Positions 28,864 through 45,325 of a DNA stretch of 64,000 nucleotides are shown here, piece by piece. A model generated the notes under the pieces. The model did no database searches. It was not told where the DNA came from and worked only from the letters and a program-made list of their open reading frames with translations. Made by a program: the position numbers and the translations under genes. Source of the DNA: an uncultured Candidatus Poseidoniales archaeon (GTDB taxonomy: Archaea > Thermoplasmatota > Poseidoniia > Poseidoniales > Poseidoniaceae); assembly GCA_963997415.1 (NCBI GenBank), contig CAXEMN010000009.1, positions 243-64,242 on the forward strand, given 5' to 3'. The number at the start of each line of letters is the position of its first letter. The first letter of the stretch is position 1.

Positions 28864-30051
28864 ATGTTCGCAGGCACTGTTGAGTCGTTGAGTCACGAAG
28901 GTGGCCTCTTGGTGTCCTTTACAGGCTCCTCTCCAGCGCTTGAATCGATTATTGTCAACCTTGAGACTGGGGAGTATATCGGCAAAGTCGACGCTGTGCT
29001 CGGCAACACCAATGCTCCGTTAGCTCATGTGGCACATCTTGATCGAAAACTGGACATCCCTAGCTTGGTTGGAATTGAAGTCAATATTCGGCCAAAGAAG
29101 GTCCGAGAAGAACGAAGTTTTGGCGACCGAAATGGTGGACGGAACAACGACCGCGGTAGAAATGACCGCGGTGGACGGTTTGACCGGAACGATCGCGGTG
29201 GTCGATTTGAGCGAAATGACCGTCGGGGTGGTGACCGAAGAGGACACGACCGAAACAATCGTGGCAACAACGGCGGCGACTGGGAATGTCCAAAGTGCAA
29301 TAACAACAATTTCGCTTTCCGACAAGAATGTAATCGCTGCGGAGAACCGAGAGGAAGTCATAGTCATGGACAGCGTTCAAACGACCGAGGTTTCCAACGC
29401 CGCGAGCAACGAGGTGGACGTTTCGAGCGAAACGACCGTTCCAGCAACCGTATGCAAGGCGACTGGGATTGCCCGAAGTGTCACAATGACAACTTTGCTT
29501 GGCGAACTGAATGCAACAAATGTGGTGCACCGAAGCCTGGAGGTCAAGGACGGCCTCCACGACGGGATGACCGAAGAGGTAACGACCGATTTGGAGGCAA
29601 CGATCGGCGTGGTGGCGACCGAAGAGGCAACGACCGTCGGGGCGGTGACCGAAGAGGCAACGACCGTAGAGGCGGTGGTGAAATATTCAACGACAACGAC
29701 TGGGAGTGCCCTCAGTGTAATAATTCGAATTTCGCGTTCAGACAAGAATGCAATCGGTGTGGCCTGCCTCGAAACGGTGGTCAATCCAGACCTCGTCGAG
29801 ATGACCGGCGAGGTGGCGACCGAAGAGGTCGAGATGATCGGCGAGGTGGCGACCGAAGAGGTGGCGATGACCGACGGGGTGGCGACCGAAGAGGTCGAGA
29901 TGACCGGCGAGGTGGCGACCGAAGAGGTGGCGATGATCGGCGACCCCCTCGCCGTGAACCTCGTGAATTCCGAAAGGCCCGCGGCAAGGGTTCAGGCCAT
30001 GCTCACAACCGGCCACCTCGTGACTTGATGGGCAGGGACAAAGAAGATTGA
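28864..30051 (+). CDS. Gar1-like barrel fused to three RanBP2-type zinc fingers in R/G/D-rich repeats
   Basis: aa 1-78 are collinear with archaeal Gar1 as recalled (G.V......G.LLV....SP.L...IV........IGKVDAVLG....P...V). Three exact matches to W-x-C-x2-C-x3-N-x6-C-x2-C. The remainder is [15 protein letters not shown] repeats. Confidence 0.8.
29278..29343 (+). other. RanBP2-type zinc finger 1
   Basis: [22 protein letters not shown]. Confidence 0.85.
29461..29526 (+). other. RanBP2-type zinc finger 2
   Basis: [22 protein letters not shown]. Confidence 0.85.
29611..29678 (+). repeat. coding 30-nt tandem repeat ([10 protein letters not shown] units)
   Basis: GGTGGCGACCGAAGAGGCAACGACCGTCGG is followed by GGCGGTGACCGAAGAGGCAACGACCGTAGA and a partial third unit. 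Confidence 0.8.
29698..29763 (+). other. RanBP2-type zinc finger 3
   Basis: [22 protein letters not shown]. Confidence 0.85.
29797..29945 (+). repeat. coding 33-nt tandem repeat, ~4.5 units (R[DG][10 protein letters not shown])
   Basis: Units at 29797, 29830, 29863, 29896 and 29929. Units 1 and 4 are identical (CGAGATGACCGGCGAGGTGGCGACCGAAGAGGT). Confidence 0.9.
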
Positions 30052-31226: not shown

Positions 31227-32369
31227 ATGGACATTTCAAGTGAATTGGTGGCGGTCAACACCATACTCATCACGTTAATGCTCTCAGAAGGATTGTATAC
31301 GAAATTCGCAAGGAAAAAACAAGTTCCTTGGAAGGAGATGATTTACAATCTCAATTCTGGCCACCTCATCATGTGGATCTTCCGTGGTTTTGAAATCGTT
31401 GGATACTACTACATTTGGCTTCATTCACCGTTCAGGCTGTTTGAAGGCGTCCCTTACTGGGCAACGGTCGCTATTGCCTTCATTTGTTGGGACTTTGGAT
31501 TCTATTGGTTCCATCGCATGCACCACAAATTCCCTGTGTTGTGGGCCCTGCACAATGTGCATCATGAAGGTGAACATTTCAACCTCTCCCTCGGCATCCG
31601 AAACGCGTGGTTTTCTTCAATCTCAGCCCTTCCATTCTACAGCTTCATGGCTATTGCAGGCATACCGACAGAAATTTTCGTTCTCGTTGCAAGTACTCAC
31701 ATCGTCATTCAATTTTACAACCACAATGGCATTGTCAAAAAATCAGGGGTCTTGGAACACATCATGATCACACCTTCTCATCACCGAGTTCATCACGGCA
31801 GGCAGGAGATTTACATCGACAAGAATTTCGGAGGTACGCTTGTGCTATGGGACAAAATGTTTGGTACATTCCAAAGGGAAGAAGAACATACTCCGGTACA
31901 ATTTGGAACCGATCAACCACTTGGAACCACCAATGTATTCTGGGGTAATTTAATTCCTATTTTCCGCTGGATGGGCGTTAAAATTGAGGCCCCTGTTCAA
32001 GGGAAATATCGAATATCCAACCTCCACATTGTGGTTCATGGCATTCTTCTTTTCACCATTTACATCCAGTACCTGTTGATGGAATTAAACGGGACATATA
32101 CAGACAGATTGATCGTCTTTTGTATTGGCATCGCAGGTACCATTGGCCTTGGCTTCATCAGTGATCAGAAACTTTGGGGCTACAGACTCAATTTGCTTGC
32201 ATCCACCCTTCTTGTCGCATCCTACTTTACCTTCTTCCGCATGAATGATCTCATCTTCGAGGTGATGTTGGCCCTTCTGATGTGTTCAAATCTCATCATG
32301 TTACTCACTGCTATCGAAGAACCACTGCATCAAAAAACATCGAAAGAAGCAATGGGAATGAAGGCATAA
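31227..32369 (+). CDS. fatty-acid-hydroxylase superfamily (sterol desaturase/alkylglycerol-monooxygenase-like) di-iron membrane oxygenase with extra C-terminal TM domain
   Basis: Histidine boxes HRMHH, HNVHHEGEH and HHRVHH, plus NFGGTLVLWDKMFGTF. The C-terminal ~130 aa add about 4 TM helices. Confidence 0.8.
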   Translation: MDISSELVAVNTILITLMLSEGLYTKFARKKQVPWKEMIYNLNSGHLIMWIFRGFEIVGYYYIWLHSPFRLFEGVPYWATVAIAFICWDFGFYWFHRMHHKFPVLWALHNVHHEGEHFNLSLGIRNAWFSSISALPFYSFMAIAGIPTEIFVLVASTHIVIQFYNHNGIVKKSGVLEHIMITPSHHRVHHGRQEIYIDKNFGGTLVLWDKMFGTFQREEEHTPVQFGTDQPLGTTNVFWGNLIPIFRWMGVKIEAPVQGKYRISNLHIVVHGILLFTIYIQYLLMELNGTYTDRLIVFCIGIAGTIGLGFISDQKLWGYRLNLLASTLLVASYFTFFRMNDLIFEVMLALLMCSNLIMLLTAIEEPLHQKTSKEAMGMKA

Positions 32370-32430
32370 ATTGGTTCAGTCCGCTGTTGACCGGTTGAAC
32401 CTTTTTAGTCACAATAGAGTATTCTTCGCC

Positions 32431-33474
32431 ATGGTAGCCGGGGGCACGCATGCGCAAATCCTATCCTTTGCGGGGTATCTACCAGAAAAGGAGATTCTGA
32501 CAGAATCGTTCGCAAAGTTGGGCGACCTCCCAGCTTCAATCGAATTCAAGCGATTGACTGGAATCAATGCTCATAGAGAGGCTGCTGAAGATGAAGGAAG
32601 CCTCGAACTTGCACTCAAGGCTGGTCAAAAGGCGCTTGAACGCTGCGGAATTCCGCGCGAGGAAATTGATCTTGTCATCAGTTGTTCAGTGAGCCAACTT
32701 TCGCCTGAACTTCACCAACATATTTCGCCAAGTTTTGCAACATCGATCGCTGAACATCTTGGCATATACGGCGCACAAACCTTCGATGTCGCTAATGCTT
32801 GCTCGAGCATGATGACGTCATTGATGATTGCAGAAGCCAAGATCAAGGCGGGAAAAATACGTCATGCGCTCATCGTTTCAGGAGAACACATCACATCATT
32901 AATTGATGAAGCAAAGAGCAAGAATCTCTGGTTGCACAGCAAAGCGATTGCTTCGATGACCGTTGGCGATGGTGCTGCAGCATACGTTGTTGGTCCAAGC
33001 AAGGATGCCAAGCGAATGACCTTCAGTGAACCATTCACATTTGCTCAATACAACAATCACTGCATAGGTGAGGCGTCACGTGAACGCCCTGGACCACGAA
33101 TGAGAACGAAGGCCAAGCAGTTGCAATTGGGTGTGCTTGATAACCTGAGTGAGTTTTTACAGCGATCCATGAAGCATATGGAGTTAGAATGGAGTTCAAT
33201 TGATCACGTCTATTCTCACCCAACCACACCAAAGGCAGTCAAGAAAGGCGCAAAGATTGCTGAGGATTCGGTTGGTTCCATTAAATTCCTTCACAATGAC
33301 AGCAAAGACATCGGCAATACCGCCTCGACAAGTCATGGTGTTCTTCTTGAAATGTCCCGTGAAGCCGGCCACCTCAAGGAAGATGATACAGCGATATTGG
33401 TGTCGTTTGGCTCTGGTCTTGCTATGCTCGCTTTGCATTTTCATCTACCTAAGGGGGTTGAAGGATGGTCGTGA
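32431..33474 (+). CDS. KAS III (FabH/OleA-like) thiolase-fold condensing enzyme, catalytic triad present
   Basis: FDVANACSSMMTSL (Cys), VYSHPTT (His), IGNTASTSHG (Asn), C-terminal FGSGLA. ATG at 32431; the ORF is open to a TTG at 32371. Confidence 0.8.
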   Translation: MVAGGTHAQILSFAGYLPEKEILTESFAKLGDLPASIEFKRLTGINAHREAAEDEGSLELALKAGQKALERCGIPREEIDLVISCSVSQLSPELHQHISPSFATSIAEHLGIYGAQTFDVANACSSMMTSLMIAEAKIKAGKIRHALIVSGEHITSLIDEAKSKNLWLHSKAIASMTVGDGAAAYVVGPSKDAKRMTFSEPFTFAQYNNHCIGEASRERPGPRMRTKAKQLQLGVLDNLSEFLQRSMKHMELEWSSIDHVYSHPTTPKAVKKGAKIAEDSVGSIKFLHNDSKDIGNTASTSHGVLLEMSREAGHLKEDDTAILVSFGSGLAMLALHFHLPKGVEGWS

Positions 33475-34178
33475 TGCGTTCATGGAAAGCCAGCCCTCTG
33501 GGCAAAGGCCGTTTACTCAAGACCAGCGTGAACTTGGCAACCTCTGCCATGGAGGAAGCTTCGATTGATTTGAATGATATTGCGCTTATTGTGCACAGCG
33601 GGATTTACAGGCAGCATTTCCGGACTGAGCCAGCATTTGCAACACACCTTCAAGGTGCGTTGAACATCAAATGCACAACACTCACTCAAGAGAGTTCTCA
33701 CTGCTTTGCTTTCGATGTCAGCGATGGGAGTTGTAGCGCTCATGTCGCCCTCGATGCAATTGCCGATCTCTTACCACAATTCAATGGGAAATATGCGATC
33801 TTATGTGTTGGTGATGAGCGCCCTAACAAACAAACTGAATGGCCCCACACACCACATTGCTTCGTTGCCATTCTTGCACTGGAAGGTAATGGTCCTCGTC
33901 TTGAAAGGGTTTCATTTGATGAGACAAAGGCCGTCCCAGAACGAGTGATTGCATCGCATTTCGATACCAACAAAAAGGCCAATGTTTCGATTGAATATGG
34001 CGAATACCAACCTCAGCCAGTGCATGAAACTGAGCTTGAATTTTCAGGCCATCAGAACTGGTTGTCGGGAGAGCATATGCATGCATTCCACCAACGGCTG
34101 GATGGTAAAACCGATGCCTTTACCCATCGAATTGTCGACAGAACAGGTAAGACTACATCGGCCCACTGGGAGCGATGA
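33465..34178 (+). CDS. truncated KAS III-like protein lacking the catalytic His/Asn half (putative non-catalytic partner)
   Basis: N-terminal thiolase-half blocks (DIALIVHSGIY..., FAFDVSDGSCSAHVALDAIADL, YAILCVGDE). Only 237 aa and no GNT/HxxN blocks. Overlaps the upstream gene by 10 nt. Confidence 0.55.
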   Translation: MVVMRSWKASPLGKGRLLKTSVNLATSAMEEASIDLNDIALIVHSGIYRQHFRTEPAFATHLQGALNIKCTTLTQESSHCFAFDVSDGSCSAHVALDAIADLLPQFNGKYAILCVGDERPNKQTEWPHTPHCFVAILALEGNGPRLERVSFDETKAVPERVIASHFDTNKKANVSIEYGEYQPQPVHETELEFSGHQNWLSGEHMHAFHQRLDGKTDAFTHRIVDRTGKTTSAHWER

Positions 34179-35824
34179 GCATGACTGTACGGAGGTCGAA
34201 GGAGGATCTATTTCTCCTGACCTTCCTCATCGTGCTCTGCGTCTATCACATTGTAGCAAGGTTTGGACTGGCTGTTGATTTACAATGGCATACCGACGTA
34301 GGAAGGGACAAACTGCTCACGCCTCCTCATTTGATGATTTTCGCAGGCATTCTACCAACGGCTGTGTTCTTAGGTGGATACCTCATTTGGAACAGTTTCT
34401 ACAAGCCACAAAAAGTGAGTTCAGATTTCAAATTGGGCCCATTGTACGCCCCGGCAAGCATCTGGATGATGTGCACAGGCATGTTTACCCTCACCATTGG
34501 AGGGCTATTTGATGACTATTGGCATGCAAGTTATGGCGTCGACACGACGATCATTACCCCACCACATGTGTGGACTTTTGCCGGTGGAATGCTTGTTGAA
34601 GCAGCCACCTTGGTGCTCGCACTCGAACTTAAGCACAAAATGAAGGAGCAAACACCTCACTGGATCAATATCATTGTGCTGGGAACACTTTGGGCGCTTG
34701 TCTATCACTTCCATCTGGCGTTCGCTAATTTCCTTGACCCTCGGGTATCGACCCTTGATGTCTTTGATTTCCAACTCATTTTGCATTTTGTCTTTGCAGG
34801 TGCGGTCTTGATGACCTTTCTACCACTTGGCGAACGCTGGCTTGGAAAGCACGGGGTGTTGCGCCTCTCCGGCGTTATGCTTGGTTCGCAAGTCCTTTTC
34901 TTAGTGCTTGTACCGTTCTTGGTCACCTCGTTCATGACCGAAGAGCATGTGCTGAGGCCAGGAGCACCCCACACCACCTATGCGGCAAATTGCCTGCCTT
35001 GGTTGCTTTTCCCTGCAGTGTTCTTTGTCTCGAAATTCACCTCAATCACTGAAAAAAAGATCTTGATTCCACTCGTTTTGGCAGTCGATGTGGCTTGGCT
35101 CCCCACATTTATCGAACACACCCCAGTTGAAGTTGGCATTTTGAACACGGTGCTTTCAGTTCTTCTTAGTGCAGCAATCTTGTGGTTGATTTGGCCGATC
35201 ACTCAGGGTTTTGGACCAGCCATCGAAAGGTTAGCTCTACGAACTGCAAGCCAAGGTGTGAAGCCTGTTCGAAAAAAGAAGTCCGTTTCCCTGGTCGTAC
35301 TCATGCTGGTGCTTCTTTGTATGAGCGCCCCATTAGCAAGCGCCCATGCCATCCATTTGAGTGAAGAAGGCGATGGTTTTGATGCGCCTATGCGCTATTT
35401 GATTGACGTCAATGACACCTACGTTTGGGTTGAATTCATGATGTGGCCACCGAAGGCGAAGACGGTCGTTGAAGTCAGCATTCTCCCAGCCGAAAATGAA
35501 TCTACAGTGATTGATGATGTTTGGTTGACCCTTGTTTACCCCGATGAACGTGGTGAAGTCAAGATGAAGACGCTGTTTGAAAACCCAGGAGGCTATGGTC
35601 TGTGGGAATCCCAGGTCAACTTCCCCTATGCTGGTGACCAAACCATTGAAATTTGGCTTGAAGTCGATGGTGTGGCTGCGTTCACTGAGATTCCGGTGGA
35701 TGTAGCAGGCCCACCATCTCTACCGGTGTGGCTCGCTTGGTTCATTGCTTTAGCATGGCCAACAGCGTTTGTTCTGATGTGGAGACGTATCTCACTTTTG
35801 CCAAGCCAAGGGGTGAGTGCTTGA
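34175..35824 (+). CDS. polytopic membrane protein with duplicated WH...PPH motif and C-terminal extracytoplasmic domain
   Basis: About 12 hydrophobic segments. DLQWHTDVGRDKLLTPPHLMIFAG and DDYWHASYGVDTTIITPPHVWTFAG. A late signal-like segment LVVLMLVLLCMSAPLASAHAIHL is followed by a ~140-aa domain and a final TM. Confidence 0.6.
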   Translation: MSMTVRRSKEDLFLLTFLIVLCVYHIVARFGLAVDLQWHTDVGRDKLLTPPHLMIFAGILPTAVFLGGYLIWNSFYKPQKVSSDFKLGPLYAPASIWMMCTGMFTLTIGGLFDDYWHASYGVDTTIITPPHVWTFAGGMLVEAATLVLALELKHKMKEQTPHWINIIVLGTLWALVYHFHLAFANFLDPRVSTLDVFDFQLILHFVFAGAVLMTFLPLGERWLGKHGVLRLSGVMLGSQVLFLVLVPFLVTSFMTEEHVLRPGAPHTTYAANCLPWLLFPAVFFVSKFTSITEKKILIPLVLAVDVAWLPTFIEHTPVEVGILNTVLSVLLSAAILWLIWPITQGFGPAIERLALRTASQGVKPVRKKKSVSLVVLMLVLLCMSAPLASAHAIHLSEEGDGFDAPMRYLIDVNDTYVWVEFMMWPPKAKTVVEVSILPAENESTVIDDVWLTLVYPDERGEVKMKTLFENPGGYGLWESQVNFPYAGDQTIEIWLEVDGVAAFTEIPVDVAGPPSLPVWLAWFIALAWPTAFVLMWRRISLLPSQGVSA

Positions 35825-36780
35825 ACATCCTCGTCACTGGAGCAACCGGCTCACTTGGCTCAGCAGTGATGCAGCGCCTCACAACAAAAGGCCATTCTGT
35901 CAAGGGCATCGGAAGATCGCAACAAAAAATAGAGCACCTCAAAGCAAACGGACTTCAAGTGTACCGATGCGATCTTCTTGATCTTGAGGCGCTAAAATCC
36001 CATACCAACAACGTGGATGTCATTGTCCATTGTGCCGCCTATGCTGCTCCTTTTGGCAGGAAAAGCCAGTTTTTTTCGACGAACGTGAGAGGTTTAGAGC
36101 ATGTCTTCAAAGCTGTGGGGAATTCAGGGGCCCGAGTGATTGTGGTGTCCTCTGCCTCGGTGTTTGATGGTAATAACGAAACGATCCTTCACGGTGATGA
36201 AACACCCCTAAAGAGACCAAAGCACCCCTATGGAGCGAGCAAGTACGATGCAGAATGCCTCGCAGCAACCATGCCGACGAAGGCATGGATTGGATTACGA
36301 CCAAGAGCCGTCTTCGGAATTGGTGACCAAACCCTCTTACCGCGATTAAATCGACTTGTCAGCAAAGACAAATACACCATTGTTGGGAAAGGCGATGCGT
36401 TGATGGACGTCACATGCCTGAACAATTTCCTCGATGCTGTGGAGGCGGCACTCGTCGCTGAAGATGAGGCATGGGGGAAATTCTACAATATTTCAAACGG
36501 TGATCCGAGGCGATTTGAGGACATCCTCAAAGCGTATTCACAGAGGCATGGCAAAGGCATGAAACGGCGTTCAGTTCCAACATTCCTTGTCGCCTTCTTT
36601 GCATACAGTTCAGTCGCCATTGCATCGCTGATCCCAGGGAAACCATGGGAGCCACGATTGACGCCGTATGGGCTAAGGCAAATCACGCAAACCCTTCGAT
36701 TGGACATCTCTGGAGCACAAGAAGCACTCCAATGGAATCCTGAAATGACATTTGAGCAAGGTGTGGAGGAACTCAAATGA
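35821..36780 (+). CDS. extended SDR, 3beta-hydroxysteroid dehydrogenase/NAD-dependent epimerase family (OleD-like)
   Basis: ILVTGATGSLGSAV Rossmann loop right after a TTG that overlaps the upstream TGA (TTGA). Catalytic YGASKYDAE (YxxxK). VVSSASV. Confidence 0.8.
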   Translation: MNILVTGATGSLGSAVMQRLTTKGHSVKGIGRSQQKIEHLKANGLQVYRCDLLDLEALKSHTNNVDVIVHCAAYAAPFGRKSQFFSTNVRGLEHVFKAVGNSGARVIVVSSASVFDGNNETILHGDETPLKRPKHPYGASKYDAECLAATMPTKAWIGLRPRAVFGIGDQTLLPRLNRLVSKDKYTIVGKGDALMDVTCLNNFLDAVEAALVAEDEAWGKFYNISNGDPRRFEDILKAYSQRHGKGMKRRSVPTFLVAFFAYSSVAIASLIPGKPWEPRLTPYGLRQITQTLRLDISGAQEALQWNPEMTFEQGVEELK

Positions 36781-38069
36781 GTAAAATTGGCACCTTGATG
36801 CGCTACCTCAGCACACCAAGGAAATTCAAATCACGCCAACAGATTTTGAAACGTCAAAAGAAAGGCATACGGAAACACATTGCCTATGTTCGAGACCGTT
36901 CCCCGTTCTACGCAAGGCATTGGCAAGGCTTTGACAATGAGCAGTGGCAGAGCTTCCCGCTGATCGATAAGAACATCATGATGGAAAATTTAGATGATTT
37001 CCTCACGGTCAGGTTGAACGTCGAAGAGGCTCGAATCCTCGCAGCAAGGGCTGAAAAAAGTAGAGATTTCTCGCCCAAGATTGGACCCTATTCAATTGGA
37101 TATTCATCCGGAACAAGTGGTTCAAGGGGCATGCACTTCATCAGTGAGGCAGAACAAACAGGGTGGGCAGGGTTCATGCTCAAGCGTGGACTTGGTGGTT
37201 CAATATTGGGACGGCACAAGATTGGATTGATCTTGCGAGCAAATTCAAACACCTTCGAATCGATTGGTTCCAAAAAAATACAATTCTGCTTTTACGATTT
37301 GATGCTCCCTCTTGCTGAGATTCACGAACAACTTCTACGCGACCAAGTGGACGTTCTCATCGGACCACCGAGCGTCTTGAGGTACCTTGCGGATGAGAAG
37401 ACCACACTCAAACCGCGACGAATTATTTCCTCAGCGGAAGTGCTGGACGACATTGATCGTGAAATCATTGAAACCCATTTTGGCACCATAGTCCACCAGT
37501 TTTACTCCTCGACGGAGGGGGAAATTGCTGCAACATGCGAATATGGGACCTTACATCTCAATGAGGGGATGATGGTGATTCAGAAAGAATGGGTGGATGA
37601 AGAAAAGCGTTGGTTCCACCCAATCATCACGGATTTCAAGAGAAAAACCCAGCCGATTATACGCTATCGACTCAATGACATCCTCGTGGCATCACAACAC
37701 CAATGCAAATGCGGTGACGCAAGGCAATCGATCGAGGCAGTCATGGGTCGCCAAGACGATGTCTTCTACCTCCAAAAGGAAAACGAAGAGGGGTATGAGA
37801 AGATTGTCCCCGACTTCATTCGCAGAGCAGTGATGCAAATGCATCCTGACATCACTGCCTTCTGTGCCATTCAGAAATCCGCTGAGACCATCGAGGTTCA
37901 ACTCCTCCCAGAGGGCTTGAAGGACTGTTCTATGCTTGGCTTTGAATCATTATGGGCGTCGAAAAAGGTCAAAGCTGCCAGCATCAATGTGGTCGCCTAC
38001 ACACATGTTCCTTCAACCACGAAACTACGTAGGATTCGACGAAGCTTTGAACCGGCAGAATCCCTTTAG
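36777..38069 (+). CDS. adenylate-forming enzyme, PaaK/CapK/F390-synthetase-like (ANL superfamily)
   Basis: N-terminal SPFYARHWQGF...FPLIDKNIMMENLDDF pattern of COG1541-type ligases. P-loop YSSGTSGSRG. FYSSTEGEIA. ATGA-coupled to the SDR gene. Confidence 0.75.
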   Translation: MSKIGTLMRYLSTPRKFKSRQQILKRQKKGIRKHIAYVRDRSPFYARHWQGFDNEQWQSFPLIDKNIMMENLDDFLTVRLNVEEARILAARAEKSRDFSPKIGPYSIGYSSGTSGSRGMHFISEAEQTGWAGFMLKRGLGGSILGRHKIGLILRANSNTFESIGSKKIQFCFYDLMLPLAEIHEQLLRDQVDVLIGPPSVLRYLADEKTTLKPRRIISSAEVLDDIDREIIETHFGTIVHQFYSSTEGEIAATCEYGTLHLNEGMMVIQKEWVDEEKRWFHPIITDFKRKTQPIIRYRLNDILVASQHQCKCGDARQSIEAVMGRQDDVFYLQKENEEGYEKIVPDFIRRAVMQMHPDITAFCAIQKSAETIEVQLLPEGLKDCSMLGFESLWASKKVKAASINVVAYTHVPSTTKLRRIRRSFEPAESL

Positions 38070-38091
38070 GCATTCCCAGTTAGTTCCCGAC

Positions 38092-38580
38092 ATGGAGGAT
38101 TGTGTCTGGCTCAGGTCGATGCTCACTTCTGAGTTGGAGGTTCGCCCACCAAGGAGCGAACGAAAAGAAAAGCAGGCTCTCGCTGGTTTTTGCACAACAA
38201 TATACGACAATGGCAGACTTGTAGCCTTCGCAGAAATGAGAAAAGTTGGTTCTCATTTCGAGATCTCAACAGTTCTTGTTGACCCAGCCCATCGTGGCAG
38301 GGGCGTCGGAAAAAGCCTCATTCGCACCTCGGTTGAGCAGATCGAGGGGTCGCTGGTGCTGTGTTGCACGAAAAATCCAGCTATGGCAAAGGTGCTGAAA
38401 TCGCTTGGCTTTACAGCCGTTGGTTGGCCAGGAATTTCTACAGCGATTGGCCTCACCATCAACACCATTGGGCGTTTACTATCGATGCTCATCCGTTTTG
38501 AATTCAAGCGCATATGGATCCAAGGCAAAGGTATTCTCGCCTATGAGCGCTATGTGCTTGAAAAGGCTGAGAAGCAGTGA
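38092..38580 (+). CDS. GNAT-family N-acyltransferase
   Basis: Motif A VLVDPAHRGRGVGKSLI, followed by LGFTAVG. ATG at 38092, 23 nt after the upstream stop. Confidence 0.7.
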   Translation: MEDCVWLRSMLTSELEVRPPRSERKEKQALAGFCTTIYDNGRLVAFAEMRKVGSHFEISTVLVDPAHRGRGVGKSLIRTSVEQIEGSLVLCCTKNPAMAKVLKSLGFTAVGWPGISTAIGLTINTIGRLLSMLIRFEFKRIWIQGKGILAYERYVLEKAEKQ

Positions 38581-38647: not shown

Positions 38648-41600
38648 TCACTGCTGTGATTGTGCATACTGGGCTGCATATTGCTGTGCATATTGAGCCG
38701 CTGTTGCTTCATCATAGCCTTGTGAAACGAATTGCTGGTAATACTGTTGGTACACCGCATTATCCGCTGCAGGTGCCGCTGCTGCCGGCGCTGCTGCACC
38801 TGCTGCTTGCGCGGCATATTGTTGAGCATAGGTTCGTGCTGTTTCCTCAGGGTATCCCTGGGCGATCAGTTGCTGGACATATTGCTCAGTAGCATCGAGT
38901 TGTGCGGAGCCATAGCCTGCAGAGCTTGCTGCGAAGTCCTTGATGGTATCATCGCCACCTGCGCCGCCCTTCTTTAGGAAGAGCAAGGTCAAGATGATCA
39001 CCACGAGAAGGGCTGCGACGCCAATGCCGATGGTCGTGGCATCTAGACCGCTGCTTGTGCCGTCGGAATCGCCAGTTTGAGCAGGTGCAACCCATTCTCC
39101 GTTCTCGAAGGTCCAAGCACCACTCCACTCACATTCATTGTCAGCGTTGAGGATGAACTCGCCTCCTGCTGCAAGTGCTTCGGCGTCTGCCTCAAGCCCT
39201 TGACATGCTGGAAGTTGGATTTCAATCCACTTGATGGTGACCCATCGTTCATCATCGCCTTCGTAGATCTTGATGAAGATACGTTGACTTTGAGACTTGT
39301 TGGTGTACTTGCCATCCAACGAAAGGGTGAGATCGAATGTTTCAGTGTCGCCAATCTTGTCGGTACGGTCCCATTCACCAGCGAGGCCAAGGTTGTACTT
39401 GTCCACAGCGCTGGCTTCGAAGTCGGTCTCAACGAAAGCGGCTTCGACGTAGACGTCACCATTTTCCGCACCCGAAAGGACAGTTCCTGAGATGGTCACG
39501 GTATCGGTGTCAACTCGAGAAGCGTTGAGTGAAGCATCGAGTTGGACCACAGGTTCTTCGTCACCGAAGCCATCTGGTACAACAACGAAGTACATTCGGT
39601 ACTTCTCAGAGAACTTACCTGCCTTATCATAGACAATCAATTCAATTCGGATTTGGTTCTCAGTGGTACCGCTTGGGTCAACAGTCACGTTTCGGAAGGT
39701 GTAAGCCCATGCGCCATCACTGGCAGCGTTCTGCTCGAAGGTGTGACCGTCGAGGCTGAAGGAGTCGTCGCCATATGGAGCGTCAAACAGGACCTTCCAT
39801 TCATAGGATTCAATTCCATTACCTTCGAGCGCATCCAAGTCAGTTGAGTTGCTGGCATCGAAGTGGATGGTCACTTCACCATCTTCATCGAGGATGATTC
39901 GATTCACTGACCACTCGGTGTTGGAAACTGTCTTGGTTCCTACGTATTCCACGAGGTCTGTGTACTCATCACGCATGTCGATCATTGCTTCAGCGGTTGG
40001 CCGGTATTCGTCTGCATAGACATCATTGGTTTCCACAGTCACTTCGATGACACGGGCGTGGCCAGCATCGTCGTGAAGCATGAGCGTGATGGTCCATTGT
40101 TCGCCCTGAGCGCAACCTGTTGCCGATGAAAGATCAATCTTACAGAAGTTCATGACTGGCATTGCTTCTGTGGTGTGACCGGTCATTCCAGTCGCCATGG
40201 TCGAACCGTCCCACGAGGTTGGTCCAGAAACAATCCAGTCGGTATGGAGGGTCTCGGTTGTGGTCGTGGTGTAGGAGAAGGTCAAGTCGGCGTCACTCTT
40301 CATGTAGCGCAACTCATATCCACCTGTGCTTGGGTTGATTCCTGGGATTTGGTCGTTGATCTTCAGGTCCAATCCGTTCCCGAGTGTACCGAACCCTTCT
40401 GGGTAAGGTGTGACTTGGTAGCTGAGCATGTTTCCGAGCAATGGTAGCGTTGAACTGTCAGCACGTTCGGAGTGGGTGGAAACGTCCATTGTAGAGATGA
40501 TCATACCACCAGAGTAGTAGCTGCACACACCAAGAACTGTGTCTTGGATGTCATCAGCATCACGAATCAAACGCTGGAAATAACCGCCGTCTTCCATGTA
40601 TCCATTACAGGTCACAGGGACGTTGTTTGCGCTGACTGACTTGGTGTTCAGTACCGCTTGAGCCACTGTTGAATCCGCATCAAATCCTTGGAAGGCGTTG
40701 ATGTCAACGTTATCCATCAATGGGTGGTATGGGTCAGCGAAATCAGTTCCAGAGAAGTCAATTCGAGACTCAGGAGTGTTTCGGCTTTGCACGTCAAGTC
40801 CGAATGGCAGTCGTCCATTGAGGCCTTGGTCGACACCGTAGATTTGGCTTCCTTGTGGCCCGAGGTGGGCTTGGATTGTACCACCTGCGGACATGAAGCC
40901 CTCAAGTGTGGTTCGGTGAGCAGTTGATCCCAACTTCTGGTAATAGCCACGTCCACCGTTCTCGATGTCCTTTGCTGCGATGTCATCTTGCCAAGGCAAT
41001 ACAATCTTGTCGTAGTGAGTGAACCAGCCTGCATCGAGGTACTCATCCCAATCGTTGATGGTGTACTGAGTGTAAGACATGTTCAAGATGTTCAGATCTT
41101 CCTTGATGGCATTGGTTCGAACAGAGGTGTCTGAAAGGATGGCGACATCCACGTGGTCTGCGAAGGTGGCATGGAAGTATCGAACGTTTCCAGAGGCGGC
41201 TCCACTTGCGAGTTCTGCATCAAAGCTGATGTTGTAGGTGTGGCCGTCCATCCAGCCGTTCCATGGGGTGAATGTCACCTCAATCTTCTGATGTGAGTCA
41301 AGAGACTGTGATGGTCCAGCAGTCGTGGTGTGAGCCATGCTACCAGCAGTTTCGTCGTAGATGTTCATGTTGAACACATAGTCACCAGCAAGCACACCGT
41401 TGGTGGCTTGGAGGGCCCAGTCGTGGGTGTAAGAACTGTCAATTGGCATCACACACTCGAGAATTTGGTCATTCAAACACGAAAGCGTGTTCGGCTTACC
41501 CAGAGTGATATCAACGGATTCTACGTTGAAGATCACACGCTCGATGTTGTTTGACGTCGAAATTTCTGCAACGTTGTACCAAGGCACACCTTGAGTTGTG

Positions 41601-44600
41601 TTGTCATAGATTGTTTCAACTTCAATCATGTAGACTCCAGCAAAGAATTCGTGGTTTGCCACTGTGTCTGTGGATGGGTCTTCAGCGTCGACGTTGGTGC
41701 GGGAAATCATGTATGCATTGTCTTCAACGAAGGTGAATTCTTGCAAGGTGATGTTGTTGAACGCCACACCTTTGAACCCATCATTGATTCCGTTTCTTCC
41801 ATCATCGTCTGATTGGAATTCGAAGTTGATGTCAACAACCGAGCCAGAAAGTGACATGCACTCATAGCCCCAGTTGATTGAACTGGCATCTGAAGTGTTG
41901 AGCACATACAAGTGGGTCAGATCGATTGAGGTGGTTGCCACAAGGTCGTTCGTGTTGAAGAACACATTGTAGTTGCCACCCGTACCGTCAGTGGTTGAAT
42001 CATCGCCAATGTAGGAGATTTCAGCGTTGTCGATTGGTTCTGAGGCGTTGACAAGTCCATTGCCGTCTTCGTCAATTTGACAGGTGCCATCTTCGTTGTA
42101 GTCATTCCACTGTCCGACCAAGACGCCAGAGTAGGTTGCTCCATCCCGTAGGATATCGAGGGTCATGGCGGCGTAATCGTTGACGTCAACGATGGATGTT
42201 CCGTCTGAATCAATACCGTAGAATGTATCAGCGTAGTATTCAAAGTTGAGAGATACGAAATCTCCGCTCATCGAGGTCAAGTCAATGTCAGGGATGGTCA
42301 GCGTTTCATTTGCCCAAGCATCACCATAGCCATTTGCTCCAGTGTCACAAGGGTGTCCAAACCAATATGCATTGTTGTTGAAGATCTTGTCTTGACAGGT
42401 GTTTTCATTGTAGATCACACCCTTCGGATTGGCGCTTTCAGTGTACCTGTATCCATTCGCTCCTCCTTCGAAGTCTTCTTCACATAGAGCAGTCGGTGTT
42501 CCACAGTACACATCGGATGGTGTTGCAGAGAAGACGGTCGCCTCGATATCGAAGTCCATTTCGGTGTTACCATAGTTGTTGGTTGTGACATCGATGTCGA
42601 ACATACCTTCTGCATAGAGTCCTCCTGGATTGAAGTATTCGATGCCTTCCACGGTTGGATCATAAAGATTGAACGGCGTAATGTAGCCAACCAACTCATC
42701 ATTCTGCGGTTGTTCATCCCAACTGTTTGCAGACAGGCTTGCGGAAATTCTGTATGTTGTGTCATTGAGCAAGTCTGCGGTAATCGAAGTGGTGTACTCT
42801 TGTCCAGGACCGAGGTTGTTGAGGTTGATCGTGGATTGCTGAACTTGTGGGTTCGCAAGGAAGGCCGTGTTTTGCTTCCAAATGGTGAGATTATCCACTG
42901 CGTATCCGTCTCGGCCAGTCCAACGGCTTTCGTTATCATCAGAAATGGAGCCTGTGAATCCAGTGCGGAAGCGGAAGCGGACATCGACTGTTTCACCAGC
43001 CCAAGGACTGAGGTCAAACGCACCTACGCCCTCTTCAGTGAAGTTGTTCCATCCGTAATAGGTTCCAAAGGAATAGACACCATAGTAGTAGACGCCCTCG
43101 GCGACACCACCAATGGCTTGCTTGTATTGACGATCGAGGTCAAAGCCACCCCACATCGAGGCACCAGAGGCGCATGCACCGCTGACATAGGCTTCTTGTG
43201 GACAGGAGATAACGTCCCATCCCGATTCAGCACTGCCAATTTCAATCATTGCAATGTCATCCCAAACATCGCCAGCAAGGTAGTTGCCTGTTTGATCAAC
43301 GCTTCCAAGCACACCGTGACCGAGGTGCTGGAACAGCTCAACGCTCATGAAGGCACGATCTGAGCCCGTGAGGTCAACATCTTCGAGGACCATAGCGTCG
43401 TCCCAGTTCTTGTCATACCCACTCCATAGACCGCCAGAGGTGTTGGTCTTGTAATGTCCAGCCCACATGAAGTCGGTTGGGTTTTGGTAATTCGCGGAAA
43501 CGTTTGGATCGTTGTTTCCATCAGATGCACCGATGGAATGATTTGTCTCTTCGTGCCACTTTGTGGCTTGATCGATGTATTCTTCGAAAGCCCAACTGCA
43601 GCCAGTGCCACAGCCGGTCTTGTCTTCTGGAGCGTCCCAGTCCATTTGGTAGACAGTGCTGTTGGTCGATGAAGCCTCATCGACAACCTTGAGTTCAAGG
43701 TCAAGGGTCGCGCTTTGGCCATTGAGAATGTCCATTCCAGTGTTGGTCACTGTGACGTTGATGTCACGCGTACCTTCACCGACAATTCCGAAGAAGTTGT
43801 CAGTTGGGTTAATCTCGAGAGAGGTGACAGCAAGATCTTTGTTGTCCATTTCGACAACGGTAATGGTATCGTATTGCCCTTCCCATCCGAAGTTGTCTAC
43901 CCAACTACCGAAGTCATAGCTGGTGTGCCCAACAACGATGTCTGGTGCTGAATTGGAAGCACCTGCGAGTTGACCCACTTCGACCATGCTCGGTCGTCGG
44001 CCTGCCTCGTAGGAAAGAGGTGTTAGATGTGCCCCGCTTCCGTCCGAAAGGGTCACTTGGACCGTGGTTGGGAAGTTGAGGTAGAAGTTTGATGTGGAGC
44101 CACCTGCGGAGTCACTGCTGTTTTGTTGATACGCAACCGTTGGGTTGACGAAATCAGGCTCACCGTCACCGTTGAGATCAGCGATGGTGACAGAATAGGA
44201 GATGTAGGGTCCAAAGTAGGCCCGGGCGGGCGTCGACCAACTTCCAGAGGAAGCAGATGTCACGAAACTGACATTTTCCACGTTTCCATCGTTGAGAACC
44301 ATAGCGTCGATTTCTCCGTTTCCATCAATGTCTGCAATATCGAAATCATTGGCAAATTCGACGTTCATGTTGATGATGCTCGTTCCGGTTTGTGGGGTTG
44401 CTGTGTTGAAGCTGTAGGTTGCTGGGTACGTGTTTGTCAAGCAGGAGTACTCGATGATGGAGAGGTTATCGCTGTTTCCAGGGTTGGTGGATTGACCAGT
44501 GGAATAATCAACACCTTCTGAACGAAGCAGATAGATGTCATCATCGGTACAAGTGCCGCTGAGTCCACCGGTTTCAGTTTCACCCCAGTCGCCAACTTCG

Positions 44601-45325
44601 AGGCTACGGTATGCGTTTTGATTCGATGGCCCGAGGGTTGTAATCATGCCCTGAGTGGCGGAAGAGATCGGTCCACGGTAGGTGACGACACGTTGCGATG
44701 AAAGATCGCTCAAGAGGTCGAGAATGTAGATGTCATCGTTTCCGTCTTGGTCTGCATCGCCCACAGCGAGGTCCCAAGCCCAGAAATGTGTGAATCGCTC
44801 TCCGATGCTCCAAGAGTCGTCATTGCATCCAGCGTTTTCAATGATGGTGACGTTTCCAGGTTCTCCTGCTGGTGCGCCGTTATCATCGGTCTTGAATGGG
44901 TTGTTGCGTTGGAAGATGACGATGTCGTCTGCTCCATCGCCAGTGAATTCACCAACTTCGATGAATTGAACGTTCGAGAATTCGTCCCAGTCTGCGTTTC
45001 GACTTTGGTTCTTTGAGACCCAAATGTCCTGACGCTCGCTGAAATCTCCATTGCCATCGTTCCAGAGGATGCTGATGGTGTGGGTTCCTTCTGTTGCCAC
45101 GGCCAAATCATTGAAACCGTCACAATTGAAATCGCCGATTGCGACGTCCAACGGATCACGATTTGTGGTGTATGAACGGGCAATTGAAGCGCTCGCAGTT
45201 GTTGCAAGGGCGGCGGTGGTCGACAAAACCATCAGCATGACAAGGAACATGCTCAAGGCGCGGCTGTTATTGTGGTTGTTTTTGGAGAACATCAACATCA
45301 CTGCTTCGGCCAACGCCCGTTGCAC
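38648..45325 (-). CDS. giant (about 2200 aa) cell-surface protein with FG-GAP/VCBS-like repeats, C-terminal TM anchor and repeated Q/Y/A-rich cytoplasmic tail
   Basis: Signal peptide MFLVMLMVLSTTAALATTASA. Ca-binding-like repeats (DFNCDGFNDLAV, FTGDGADDIVI, GDADQDGNDDIYI, DIDGNGEIDAMV, DLNGDGEPDFV). TM IGIGVAALLVVIILTLLFL, then a 108-aa tail. The ORF is open to a GTG at 45325; ATGs at 45298/45292 are the likely starts. Confidence 0.85.
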   Translation of the reverse strand: MQRALAEAVMLMFSKNNHNNSRALSMFLVMLMVLSTTAALATTASASIARSYTTNRDPLDVAIGDFNCDGFNDLAVATEGTHTISILWNDGNGDFSERQDIWVSKNQSRNADWDEFSNVQFIEVGEFTGDGADDIVIFQRNNPFKTDDNGAPAGEPGNVTIIENAGCNDDSWSIGERFTHFWAWDLAVGDADQDGNDDIYILDLLSDLSSQRVVTYRGPISSATQGMITTLGPSNQNAYRSLEVGDWGETETGGLSGTCTDDDIYLLRSEGVDYSTGQSTNPGNSDNLSIIEYSCLTNTYPATYSFNTATPQTGTSIINMNVEFANDFDIADIDGNGEIDAMVLNDGNVENVSFVTSASSGSWSTPARAYFGPYISYSVTIADLNGDGEPDFVNPTVAYQQNSSDSAGGSTSNFYLNFPTTVQVTLSDGSGAHLTPLSYEAGRRPSMVEVGQLAGASNSAPDIVVGHTSYDFGSWVDNFGWEGQYDTITVVEMDNKDLAVTSLEINPTDNFFGIVGEGTRDINVTVTNTGMDILNGQSATLDLELKVVDEASSTNSTVYQMDWDAPEDKTGCGTGCSWAFEEYIDQATKWHEETNHSIGASDGNNDPNVSANYQNPTDFMWAGHYKTNTSGGLWSGYDKNWDDAMVLEDVDLTGSDRAFMSVELFQHLGHGVLGSVDQTGNYLAGDVWDDIAMIEIGSAESGWDVISCPQEAYVSGACASGASMWGGFDLDRQYKQAIGGVAEGVYYYGVYSFGTYYGWNNFTEEGVGAFDLSPWAGETVDVRFRFRTGFTGSISDDNESRWTGRDGYAVDNLTIWKQNTAFLANPQVQQSTINLNNLGPGQEYTTSITADLLNDTTYRISASLSANSWDEQPQNDELVGYITPFNLYDPTVEGIEYFNPGGLYAEGMFDIDVTTNNYGNTEMDFDIEATVFSATPSDVYCGTPTALCEEDFEGGANGYRYTESANPKGVIYNENTCQDKIFNNNAYWFGHPCDTGANGYGDAWANETLTIPDIDLTSMSGDFVSLNFEYYADTFYGIDSDGTSIVDVNDYAAMTLDILRDGATYSGVLVGQWNDYNEDGTCQIDEDGNGLVNASEPIDNAEISYIGDDSTTDGTGGNYNVFFNTNDLVATTSIDLTHLYVLNTSDASSINWGYECMSLSGSVVDINFEFQSDDDGRNGINDGFKGVAFNNITLQEFTFVEDNAYMISRTNVDAEDPSTDTVANHEFFAGVYMIEVETIYDNTTQGVPWYNVAEISTSNNIERVIFNVESVDITLGKPNTLSCLNDQILECVMPIDSSYTHDWALQATNGVLAGDYVFNMNIYDETAGSMAHTTTAGPSQSLDSHQKIEVTFTPWNGWMDGHTYNISFDAELASGAASGNVRYFHATFADHVDVAILSDTSVRTNAIKEDLNILNMSYTQYTINDWDEYLDAGWFTHYDKIVLPWQDDIAAKDIENGGRGYYQKLGSTAHRTTLEGFMSAGGTIQAHLGPQGSQIYGVDQGLNGRLPFGLDVQSRNTPESRIDFSGTDFADPYHPLMDNVDINAFQGFDADSTVAQAVLNTKSVSANNVPVTCNGYMEDGGYFQRLIRDADDIQDTVLGVCSYYSGGMIISTMDVSTHSERADSSTLPLLGNMLSYQVTPYPEGFGTLGNGLDLKINDQIPGINPSTGGYELRYMKSDADLTFSYTTTTTETLHTDWIVSGPTSWDGSTMATGMTGHTTEAMPVMNFCKIDLSSATGCAQGEQWTITLMLHDDAGHARVIEVTVETNDVYADEYRPTAEAMIDMRDEYTDLVEYVGTKTVSNTEWSVNRIILDEDGEVTIHFDASNSTDLDALEGNGIESYEWKVLFDAPYGDDSFSLDGHTFEQNAASDGAWAYTFRNVTVDPSGTTENQIRIELIVYDKAGKFSEKYRMYFVVVPDGFGDEEPVVQLDASLNASRVDTDTVTISGTVLSGAENGDVYVEAAFVETDFEASAVDKYNLGLAGEWDRTDKIGDTETFDLTLSLDGKYTNKSQSQRIFIKIYEGDDERWVTIKWIEIQLPACQGLEADAEALAAGGEFILNADNECEWSGAWTFENGEWVAPAQTGDSDGTSSGLDATTIGIGVAALLVVIILTLLFLKKGGAGGDDTIKDFAASSAGYGSAQLDATEQYVQQLIAQGYPEETARTYAQQYAAQAAGAAAPAAAAPAADNAVYQQYYQQFVSQGYDEATAAQYAQQYAAQYAQSQQ

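Follow-up and report, generated by a model that had tools for sequence, protein, structure and literature searches.

A Poseidoniales-wide operon predicted to make a two-chain lipid by Ole/Lst/Nlt-type condensation

Which lipids are made by the Marine Group II archaea (Poseidoniales)? These organisms are the most abundant planktonic archaea of ocean surface waters (PMC6461757), they lack a glycerol-1-phosphate dehydrogenase, and the known archaeal lipids are not found in waters that they dominate (PMC6962369; PMC6461757). The operon described here, p1 to p7 (Table 1), lies on a 64,000-nucleotide stretch of DNA (the window) from an uncultured Candidatus Poseidoniales archaeon (contig CAXEMN010000009.1 of assembly GCA_963997415.1) and is a concrete, testable candidate for this question. 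Judging from sequence comparison, we estimate a probability of about 0.55 that it represents a Poseidoniales-wide operon for the synthesis of a two-chain (alpha-branched, beta-oxygenated) lipid, following the logic of the Ole, Lst and Nlt systems with two non-orthologous replacements. A first-pass annotation of this DNA had proposed an eight-gene operon of the same general kind, with a ceramide-like pathway as alternative; its Ole/Lst/Nlt-type condensation followed by an OleD-type reduction is retained here, whereas the eight-gene unit, the OleC-type enzyme and the ceramide alternative are not.

The condensing step is represented by two adjacent genes. The product of p2 contains the Pfam domains ACP_syn_III and ACP_syn_III_C, and its Cys-His-Asn triad, unchanged in six orthologues, aligns on C112, H244 and N274 of Escherichia coli FabH (reference sequence identical to PDB 1HN9), in agreement with its first description as a beta-ketoacyl synthase III (KAS III)-like enzyme with these residues intact. 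Scores against the NCBIfam models for FabH were below cutoff (PRK09352, 130.6 bits, cutoff 249; TIGR00747, 127.3 bits, cutoff 292.1), PRK07204 gave only 61.6 bits, and no genes for an acyl carrier protein (ACP) or for type II fatty-acid synthesis (FAS II; FabD, FabG and FabZ included) are found within ~15 kb of the operon. On these two grounds the reading of p2 as a housekeeping FabH was rejected. For comparison, LstA carries C128/H271/N305 and is only 26% identical to FabH (PMC12141560). A profile built from p2 orthologues gave 184 and 171 bits with NltA, 114.5 bits with E. coli FabH, 42-78 bits with the KAS enzymes of a bacterial cassette (below), only 68 bits with PqsC and 44 bits with NltB. 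Of the Ole/Lst/Nlt condensing enzymes to which p2 was likened earlier, NltA scores higher than FabH, and Xanthomonas OleA scores lower than FabH among solved structures. The NltA, NltB and NltD sequences were taken from the supplement of 10.1101/856955 by machine reading and contained frameshift errors, and the frames were stitched by hand; the stitched NltB has a Glu at residue 57, in agreement with that publication.

The product of p3 matches no Pfam family, and homologues were seen only in Poseidoniales (word-seeded search, 21 clusters). Its AlphaFold2 model (pLDDT 83) has OleA, AbyA1 and FabH as top Foldseek matches, and also PqsBC, with query-normalised TM-scores of 0.6-0.7, and residues 22-130 are linked to the N-terminal half of KAS III by hhalign (probability 96.6%). 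A thiolase/KAS III fold, as predicted by these three methods, fits the earlier description of p3 as a KAS III-like protein without the His/Asn half. When the p3 profile was searched against PDB sequences, Xanthomonas OleA accounted for 12 of the top 13 matches (E 2e-5 to 6e-4; E. coli FabH, E ~0.09), with 'RTE55P56AF' of p3 aligned on 'YLE117P118ST' of OleA; the same Glu55-Pro56 is also aligned on E57-P58 of NltB. In OleA, Glu117, which is followed by Pro, is the general base that reaches into the active site of the other subunit, a feature said to be confined to OleA homologues (PMC7064751). Mutagenesis has shown the catalytic function of this Glu in OleA (PMC7064751), in LstB, for which E60 is essential (PMC12141560), and in NltB, a shortened protein without triad that requires E57; neither NltA nor NltB is active without the other (10.1101/856955). 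The profile of p3 orthologues gave 49.6 bits with NltB, 30 bits with an OleA fragment, 20.9 bits with FabH and 8.4 bits with NltA.

The Glu-Pro pair of p3 is invariant in 18 close and three divergent orthologues, and the residue at the position of the nucleophilic Cys varies among orthologues (C/N/C/R); in p2 the triad is invariant and the Glu position is relaxed (Ser, as Ser-Pro, in four of six orthologues, and Glu in two). Such a pattern would be expected of a pair in which p2 has the one working active site. The reciprocal profile matches point to an NltA/NltB-like pair and support a head-to-head Claisen condensation; the proposal of such a condensation by an active/inactive KAS III pair, made in the first-pass annotation, is thus strengthened by these scores and by the position of the p3 Glu-Pro on Glu117-Pro118 of OleA. 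A catalytic Cys-His-Lys variant of p3 was also considered (C90, H221 and K229 are invariant in close orthologues) and was rejected, since C90 and K229 vary in divergent orthologues.

For the reduction of the condensation product, p5 encodes a candidate short-chain dehydrogenase/reductase (SDR) with Pfam matches to Epimerase (102 bits) and 3Beta_HSD (77 bits) and with GATGSLG and YGASK motifs. Its best-matching NCBIfam family, by a wide margin, is the OleD-type 2-alkyl-3-oxoalkanoate reductase (NF042422, 156.1 bits, E 1.4e-45; NF042423, 134.2 bits; the next family, HpnA, 68.6 bits), so that p5 is predicted to be an OleD-like SDR, as had been claimed.

The adenylating enzyme p6 belongs to TIGR02304 (399.8 bits, cutoff 251.9; residues 6-423 on positions 5-427 of the 430-position profile) and has intact adenylation motifs (SSGTSGSRG, YSSTEGE and GRQDD), which bears out its assignment to the PaaK/F390-type enzymes. 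No Pfam match was obtained at E<=0.01, thus none to the AMP-binding family PF00501; the search of PDB sequences gave weak matches to PaaK-like ligases only, and further weak matches were to the DVU_1553 family (E 1e-21) and FlxY (E 1e-11). Homologues of p6 fall into 2986 clusters at E<=1e-10. The comparison of p6 with the OleC-type enzymes of the ANL superfamily, drawn earlier, is therefore not upheld: the formation of a beta-lactone would be by analogy, not homology, and p6 would at best be a functional analogue of OleC/NltC, outside their family. In some database records, TIGR02304 orthologues of Marine Group II (P0085 and P0090) are labelled 'adenylate cyclase', which is a misannotation. 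A contig scan with p6 gave only close Poseidoniales loci and, besides these, PaaK-like genes (24-30% identical) of Verrucomicrobiota and Halanaerobium; the latter loci were dropped, as tblastn found no other operon homologue there.

The seven genes are co-directional on the plus strand and fill positions 31227-38580 (ORF listing). The open reading frame (ORF) listing and the junction sequences give seven genes in place of the eight counted in the first-pass title; its list of junctions and all of its domain calls were confirmed. Overlaps of four nucleotides join p3 to p4 (ATGA at 34175), p4 to p5 (TTGA at 35821) and p5 to p6 (ATGA at 36777). The p2/p3 overlap is 10 nt (33465/33474), or 1 nt with a start of p3 at Met4, as in several orthologues, and p6 and p7 are separated by a gap of 22 nt (38069/38092). 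The frame of p2 is also open upstream to a TTG at 32371; the ATG at 32431 is the more likely start, because the resulting 347 aa are the length called in orthologues. The p1/p2 junction is therefore +1 nt (TTG 32371) or +61 nt (ATG 32431).

Gene neighbourhoods of relatives (designated by L numbers) were compared for synteny, a check that the first-pass annotation had suggested. All seven genes are present in a 92% identical contig (L001), and an 80% relative (L022) shows p4-p5-p6-p7 on a contig that begins within p3. In a 70% relative (L012/L013) a glycosyltransferase (PF13528) replaces p1 and there is no GNAT (GCN5-related N-acetyltransferase) gene, and in a 71% relative (L023) p2-p3-p4-p5-p6 stand alone. 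The same five genes, again with overlapping junctions, are found in three much more divergent lineages (L028/L029, L030 and L031; identity to L028 39% for p4 and 57% for p6), whose cluster members are named 'Ca. Poseidoniales archaeon' and 'Euryarchaeota archaeon'. The order p2-p3-p4-p5-p6 thus recurs in Poseidoniales contigs at 38-57% protein identity with overlapping junctions, and is therefore not a chance arrangement. The conserved core comprises these five genes, syntenic across Poseidoniales lineages, and p1 and p7 are accessories of the lineage of the window; the unit of the operon is therefore a five-gene core with variable accessories and not an eight-gene set.

One Poseidoniales lineage (L024) contains only p5 and p6 intact, with an 86-residue leftover of the p4 C-terminus (L024 7707-8036). 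Here p2, p3 and p4 have evidently disappeared jointly, and this state may reflect either a pathway in decay or a separate role of the SDR/adenylating pair. The accessory genes vary by lineage, and all are lipid- or head-group-type enzymes, as expected for head-group diversification of a lipid; L028 and L031, for example, have a gene for an ATP-grasp ligase and, in divergent orientation, one for a 370-aa protein of Acetyltransf_6 type (Fem-like GNAT). Adjoining the p6 gene, a polytopic membrane protein of ~256-260 aa without family was observed in L012 (11324-12106, minus strand), L030 (11930-12712) and L031 (11676-12446); it is absent from the window.

Table 1. Predicted genes and features of the operon (positions in the window)
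Feature	Positions	Strand	Description
p1	31227-32369	+	380 aa, fatty-acid-hydroxylase-superfamily di-iron membrane oxygenase; accessory
p2	32431 (ATG)-33474	+	347 aa, predicted catalytic KAS III-like subunit, NltA/LstA-like
p2 triad (347-aa numbering)	Cys124 32800-32802; His263 33217-33219; Asn296 33316-33318	+	from FabH alignment
p3	33465-34178	+	237 aa, predicted non-catalytic shortened thiolase-fold partner, NltB/LstB-like
p3 Glu55-Pro56	33627-33632	+	invariant; from OleA/NltB alignment
p4	34175-35824	+	549 aa, polytopic membrane protein; PmoC/AmoC-like domain and C-terminal beta-sandwich domain with transmembrane anchor (predicted)
p4 motif copy 1, D35/H39/H52	34277-34330	+	invariant in 52 sequences
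p4 motif copy 2, D113/H117/H131	34511-34567	+	invariant in 52 sequences
p4 C-terminal domain	~residues 391-510, 35345-35704	+	begins after ASA, at H391xxH394
p5	35821 (TTG)-36780	+	extended SDR (3beta-HSD/epimerase type)
p6	36777-38069	+	TIGR02304 adenylate-forming enzyme (F390 synthetase-related, PaaK-like)
p7	38092-38580	+	162 aa, small GNAT acetyltransferase; accessory or possibly unrelated

A tblastn search of plasmid records with p6 returned 'F390 synthetase-related' genes within a recurrent bacterial cassette of the order KAS III (PRK07204), (ATP-grasp), NAD(P)-dependent oxidoreductase, metallo-beta-lactamase (MBL)-fold hydrolase, F390-related enzyme and variable genes; the optional genes comprise ATP-grasp, Acetyltransf_6 GNAT, PAP2, fatty-acid-hydroxylase-type and acyl-CoA desaturase genes. 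The cassette occurs on plasmids of Bacillus, Paenibacillus, Pontibacillus, Ketogulonicigenium and Pseudomonas. Of 5426 complete E. coli genomes, 674 (~12%), uropathogenic and asymptomatic-bacteriuria strains included, carry it between narI and tyrT/purU as an island of seven genes for a KAS III, an OleD-like SDR, a lactonase-like MBL enzyme, a TIGR02304 member, a PAP2 protein, a sterol-desaturase-family protein and an acyl-CoA desaturase (e.g. L015 6200-13081, plasmid-labelled NZ_CP141085.1; L017, chromosome of strain ABU 83972). Compared with their cassette counterparts, p6 is 35-43% and p5 28-34% identical, and the Bacillales cassettes encode homologues (E ~1e-50) of the ATP-grasp and 370-aa GNAT-like proteins found in divergent Poseidoniales loci. 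OleD is the best match of all cassette SDRs, and lactonases are the best matches of the cassette MBL enzymes. The homology shared in p6, p5, p1, ATP-grasp and GNAT thus points to a common ancestry of the archaeal operon and the cassette; relative to the cassette, the archaeal operon has another condensing enzyme, is without an MBL gene and is predicted to have gained p3 and p4. A literature search found no publication on the product of the cassette or on the narI-tyrT island of E. coli, and nothing relevant on KAS III genes of Marine Group II.

The cassette also bears on a decarboxylative route of the PQS/FabH type, in which p6 would be a CoA ligase for a starter acid, p2 would extend the activated acid with malonyl-CoA to a beta-ketoacyl thioester, p3 would be purely structural like PqsB, and p5 would reduce the thioester to a linear 3-hydroxyacyl chain for a head group; an unbranched 3-hydroxy-acyl lipid or lipoamino acid would result. 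The related cassette uses a FabH-like KAS III (PRK07204) without the Glu, and the ATP-grasp and Fem-like GNAT of some Poseidoniales lineages suggest the attachment of an amino acid; p6 weakly matches acyl-CoA ligases (DVU_1553 family, FlxY and PaaK), p2 scores FabH above OleA among solved structures, and PqsBC, which is among the Foldseek matches of p3, sets a precedent for pairing an active with an inactive KAS III. However, p2 is much nearer to NltA than to FabH by its orthologue profile, and p3 keeps the OleA-defining Glu-Pro that is essential in LstB and NltB, where a structural partner with a lost Cys would need no invariant Glu. We regard this route as rather unlikely, and favour head-to-head condensation by p2 and p3.

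Between the condensing and the reducing genes lies p4. The first-pass annotation had described a membrane protein of ~12 transmembrane (TM) helices, which agrees with the about 11-12 helices predicted here, and had overlooked the most unusual part, namely the fusion of a PmoC/AmoC-like with a copper-protein-like domain. There is no family match above threshold for p4, and its closest relatives are restricted to Poseidoniales; no Pfam family covers either half, and no match to CopC, CopD or YcnI was obtained. When 1.84 billion representative proteins were scanned in full by HMMER with a p4 profile, 847 relatives were obtained, most of ~380-410 aa and matching the N-terminal 280 residues; none of the relatives tested has a Pfam family. 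Twelve residues are invariant in 52 sequences at 16-39% identity to p4. The protein has a duplicated motif, D-x2-W-H-x3-G-x-D-x6/7-H (D35-W38-H39-G43-D45-H52 and D113-W116-H117-G121-D123-H131), and the internal repeat has z = 9.2 against shuffled sequences.

With the p4 family profile, 14 of 16 matches in the PDB are AmoC or PmoC (best E 9.2e-6); the best of these alignments falls on 'DASWHQVIIRDTSFTPSH', and the matches align on 'D-x-x-W-H-(x4)-R-D-(x4)-T-P-x-H'. In PmoC, the CuC site is formed by Asp156/His160/His173, with Arg165 (PMC12576850), and the CuD site by Asn227/His231/His245. In the profile alignment, D35/H39/H52 of p4 (D-x3-H-x12-H) are aligned on the CuC ligands, with the intervening Arg kept in the family; the second motif (x3 and x13 spacing) may correspond to the CuD site, by spacing and not by alignment. 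Three independent AmoC models match p4 orthologues and distant family members weakly but repeatedly. For p4 itself the scores are 15.8 bits with AmoC_BACT and ~16-18 bits overall against family cutoffs of 27-319, i.e. below those of PmoC/AmoC (PF04896, 26.7; NCBIfam, 280-319), with a best E of ~2e-3 among orthologues and an alignment over only ~60-110 residues. Neither the full-length Foldseek search nor the PDB search with a close-orthologue profile gave a membrane-domain match, and the profile of distant members alone reached AmoC/PmoC. What can be defended on these alignments is that the membrane domain of p4 is probably a distant PmoC/AmoC relative sharing the metal site.

The C-terminal 180 residues of p4 are modelled as a beta-sandwich with moderate confidence, and the best Foldseek match of this domain is the copper-resistance protein CrdA of Helicobacter pylori (E 1.1e-3, TMt 0.68). 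In two bacterial contexts (L026 7001-8655; L032 6001-7980) a PmoC-like gene of 380-417 aa precedes a second gene of 171-184 aa, the product of which matches the p4 C-terminal profile and has a signal peptide, a His predicted to become N-terminal on cleavage (between ADA and HDS, or ALG and HGE) and a C-terminal TM anchor. Since the halves are separate adjacent genes in these bacteria, p4 is thus interpreted as the fusion of a two-gene module. The copper site of PmoB has an N-terminal histidine, which the predicted N-terminal His of the partner domain recalls.

In lineages that have p2 and p3, p4 always stands between p3 and p5, down to 38% identity; this invariant position, the 4-nt overlaps on both sides and the joint loss with p2 and p3 in L024 argue that p4 belongs to the pathway. 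It might instead be a copper-handling module (CopC/CopD- or YcnI/YcnJ-like) that came to lie in a secondary-metabolite cassette by chance, with p1 and p7 equally independent; the bacterial p4-like pairs do occur in contexts without KAS, SDR and adenylating genes, p1 and p7 are lineage-specific, and p7 follows only after its 22-nt gap. The same overlaps, fixed position and joint loss speak against unrelated neighbours, as does the full-length p1 homologue inside the E. coli cassette, and make this explanation improbable.

The PmoC-like metal site of p4 could also suggest a catabolic operon, in which p4 as copper monooxygenase would hydroxylate a hydrophobic substrate, p5 would oxidise the alcohol or hydroxy acid, p6 would form the CoA ester, and p2/p3 would act by retro-Claisen cleavage towards beta-oxidation. 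Marine Group II are heterotrophs that degrade lipids and proteins, pathways for the degradation of fatty acids are encoded in Poseidoniales (PMC6461757), L024 and L031 have genes for such degradation in the vicinity of the operon, and the bacterial cassettes carry a lactonase-like MBL gene. However, the characterised enzymes of the KAS III/OleA type condense, and thiolytic cleavage is carried out by true thiolases; the accessory glycosyltransferase, ATP-grasp, GNAT, PAP2 phosphatase and desaturase genes are of biosynthetic type; and no partner for a copper monooxygenase is predicted, as the ORFs nearest the operon (~15 kb on each side) have no Pfam match to the ammonia or particulate methane monooxygenase subunits PmoA/AmoA and PmoB/AmoB. 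A catabolic function seems improbable on this evidence.

The accessory p1 is a member of the Pfam family FA_hydroxylase (93 bits) with HRMHH, HNVHH and HHRVHH boxes; it is absent from L012, L023, L028 and L030, and its homologue in the E. coli cassette, a 'sterol desaturase family protein', shares 35% identity with it over 372 aa. The accessory p7 (Pfam Acetyltransf_1, 46 bits) is confined to the closest relatives (L001, L003 and L022). It has no similarity to the 370-384-aa protein of Acetyltransf_6 type that is linked to the operon in other lineages and in Bacillales, and a homology of p7 to this cassette GNAT was rejected for that reason. The ceramide alternative of the first-pass annotation, i.e. 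a bacterial-type ceramide/sphingolipid-like pathway in which the ceramide synthase is of GNAT type and the reductase belongs to the epimerase family, would draw on the presence of p7 and p5. No pyridoxal-5'-phosphate-dependent Spt or other aminotransferase-class enzyme is found in the operon or among its neighbours, the small GNAT is a mere accessory missing from most lineages, the best family of the SDR is OleD and the KAS pair matches NltA/NltB; we therefore give this pathway almost no credence.

For the preferred two-chain lipid, the following route is proposed. The products of p2 and p3 would form a heterodimer like NltA/NltB or LstA/LstB, by homology, in which Glu55 of p3 would reach into the active site of p2 as general base, and would join two acyl-CoAs by a non-decarboxylative head-to-head Claisen condensation to a 2-alkyl-3-keto acid. 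This would be reduced to the 2-alkyl-3-hydroxy acid by p5, again by homology. The carboxylate would then be adenylated by p6 and, by weaker analogy, either cyclised to a beta-lactone, as by OleC/NltC, or transferred to an acceptor. At the outer face of the membrane, p4 might act on or receive the hydrophobic product; this step is speculative, with oxidation as the favoured guess and, as alternative, a metal-dependent hydrolysis that would replace the lactonase-like MBL enzyme of the cassette. Finally, the lipid would be decorated according to lineage by the di-iron hydroxylase and small GNAT (here), by a glycosyltransferase, or by an ATP-grasp ligase and a Fem-like GNAT.

Several observations weigh against this proposal. 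Among solved structures, Xanthomonas OleA (86 bits) is a poorer match for p2 than FabH is (114-119 bits), and the comparison with NltA and NltB relies on the machine-read, frameshifted and hand-stitched supplement sequences. The score of p5 is far under the equivalog cutoff for OleD (156 vs 580 bits), and tblastn of p5 against NltD showed almost no similarity, a comparison that is uninformative with the error-containing supplement DNA. The enzyme p6 lies outside the OleC-type ANL enzymes and, given its weak matches to FlxY and the DVU_1553 family, might equally well be a CoA ligase for a starter acid; the role of p4 in the pathway is a guess. No OleB (alpha/beta-hydrolase, beta-lactone decarboxylase) was found among the seven ORFs or the flanking genes, and one lineage, L024, retains just p5 and p6. 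Lastly, the KAS III of the cassette is a member of another, FabH-like family (PRK07204) and has the position of Glu117 occupied by a hydrophobic residue, and the cassette overall therefore need not use head-to-head chemistry.

The genes that flank the operon within ~15 kb are unrelated to it (surface proteins, a Gar1/zinc-finger protein, transporters, aconitase, cyclophilin and a 2-oxoacid oxidoreductase). Upstream, ORF 28864-30051 (plus strand) encodes a 395-aa protein whose N-terminus weakly resembles Gar1 and which has three zinc fingers of RanBP2 type and long repeats rich in Arg, Gly and Asp (DRRGGDRRG...), an architecture that is unusual for an archaeon. Downstream and convergent with the operon, a 2225-aa surface protein is predicted at 38648-45325 (minus strand), with a signal/anchor at its N-terminus, a TM segment at its C-terminus and a tail rich in Gln, Ala and Tyr; L001 and L022 have a homologue at the same position. 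Further, ORF 21693-23807 (minus strand; 704 aa) joins a periplasmic domain of phosphonate-binding type to Transferrin-family repeats, and adjoins ABC transporter genes.

The chemistry of the first two steps is of a known kind and was rightly identified in the first-pass annotation. What appears new from these comparisons is that the pathway is shared across the lineages of an abundant order of archaea whose lipids are in question, that the slot of OleC seems to be occupied by a TIGR02304 enzyme, that the core appears to contain an unannotated PmoC-like/copper-domain protein, and that the operon appears to be tied to a widespread bacterial cassette, the E. coli island included. A literature search found OleA-type head-to-head pathways described in bacteria only. 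The proposed pathway would predict 2-alkyl-3-hydroxy acids, beta-lactones, or derived ketones or olefins in seawater lipidomes. The p4-like family (~850 representative clusters, no Pfam model) bears on the evolution of copper membrane monooxygenases, and the cassette in ~12% of complete E. coli genomes is a second unannotated system that was exposed beside it. It is a long shot that branched lipids of a hitherto undetected class (2-alkyl-3-hydroxy, mycolate-like or beta-lactone) make up a significant share of the unexplained membrane or envelope lipids of Marine Group II, with new families of TIGR02304 synthetases and p4 lipid oxygenases. If so, TIGR02304 would be a second, non-OleC family of synthetases that form beta-lactones or activate beta-hydroxy acids, and the p4 family would be a minimal PmoC-related copper membrane oxygenase, with a histidine-brace-type domain fused or paired, that acts on lipid chains and not on methane or ammonia.

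In comparison with known systems, p4 differs from PmoC in size and helix count, in the lack of a Foldseek match to PmoC with the full model, and in the lack of PmoA and PmoB. The predicted p2/p3 pair resembles PqsBC as a heterodimer of active and inactive KAS III-like proteins from adjacent genes; however, PqsC is without the Asn, PqsB gives no catalytic Glu, and the chemistry of PqsBC is an acyl transfer to 2-aminobenzoylacetate. With the OleABCD systems of Xanthomonas, Shewanella and Micrococcus the operon would share a Claisen condensation with a trans-acting Glu117-Pro, followed by an NADPH-dependent reduction by OleD; in contrast, OleA is a homodimer, the archaeal operon is without an OleC-family enzyme, and p5 is under the OleD cutoff. 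From NltABCD and LstABCD the operon differs in that p6 belongs to TIGR02304 and not, like OleC, NltC and LstC, to the ANL family PF00501, in the PmoC-like membrane protein between the condensing and the reducing genes, in its archaeal host and in its other accessories; compared with Nlt in particular, p3 is shorter (237 aa vs ~300 aa in NltB) and p5 is distant from NltD. Like NltABCD and LstABCD, the operon has a condensing enzyme split over two adjacent, translationally coupled genes, one of which carries Cys-His-Asn, and a shortened, triad-less partner that keeps the Glu-Pro near residue 55-60 (E55 in p3, E57 in NltB, E60 in LstB), together with an OleD-family-like SDR and an ATP-dependent adenylating enzyme encoded in the same operon.

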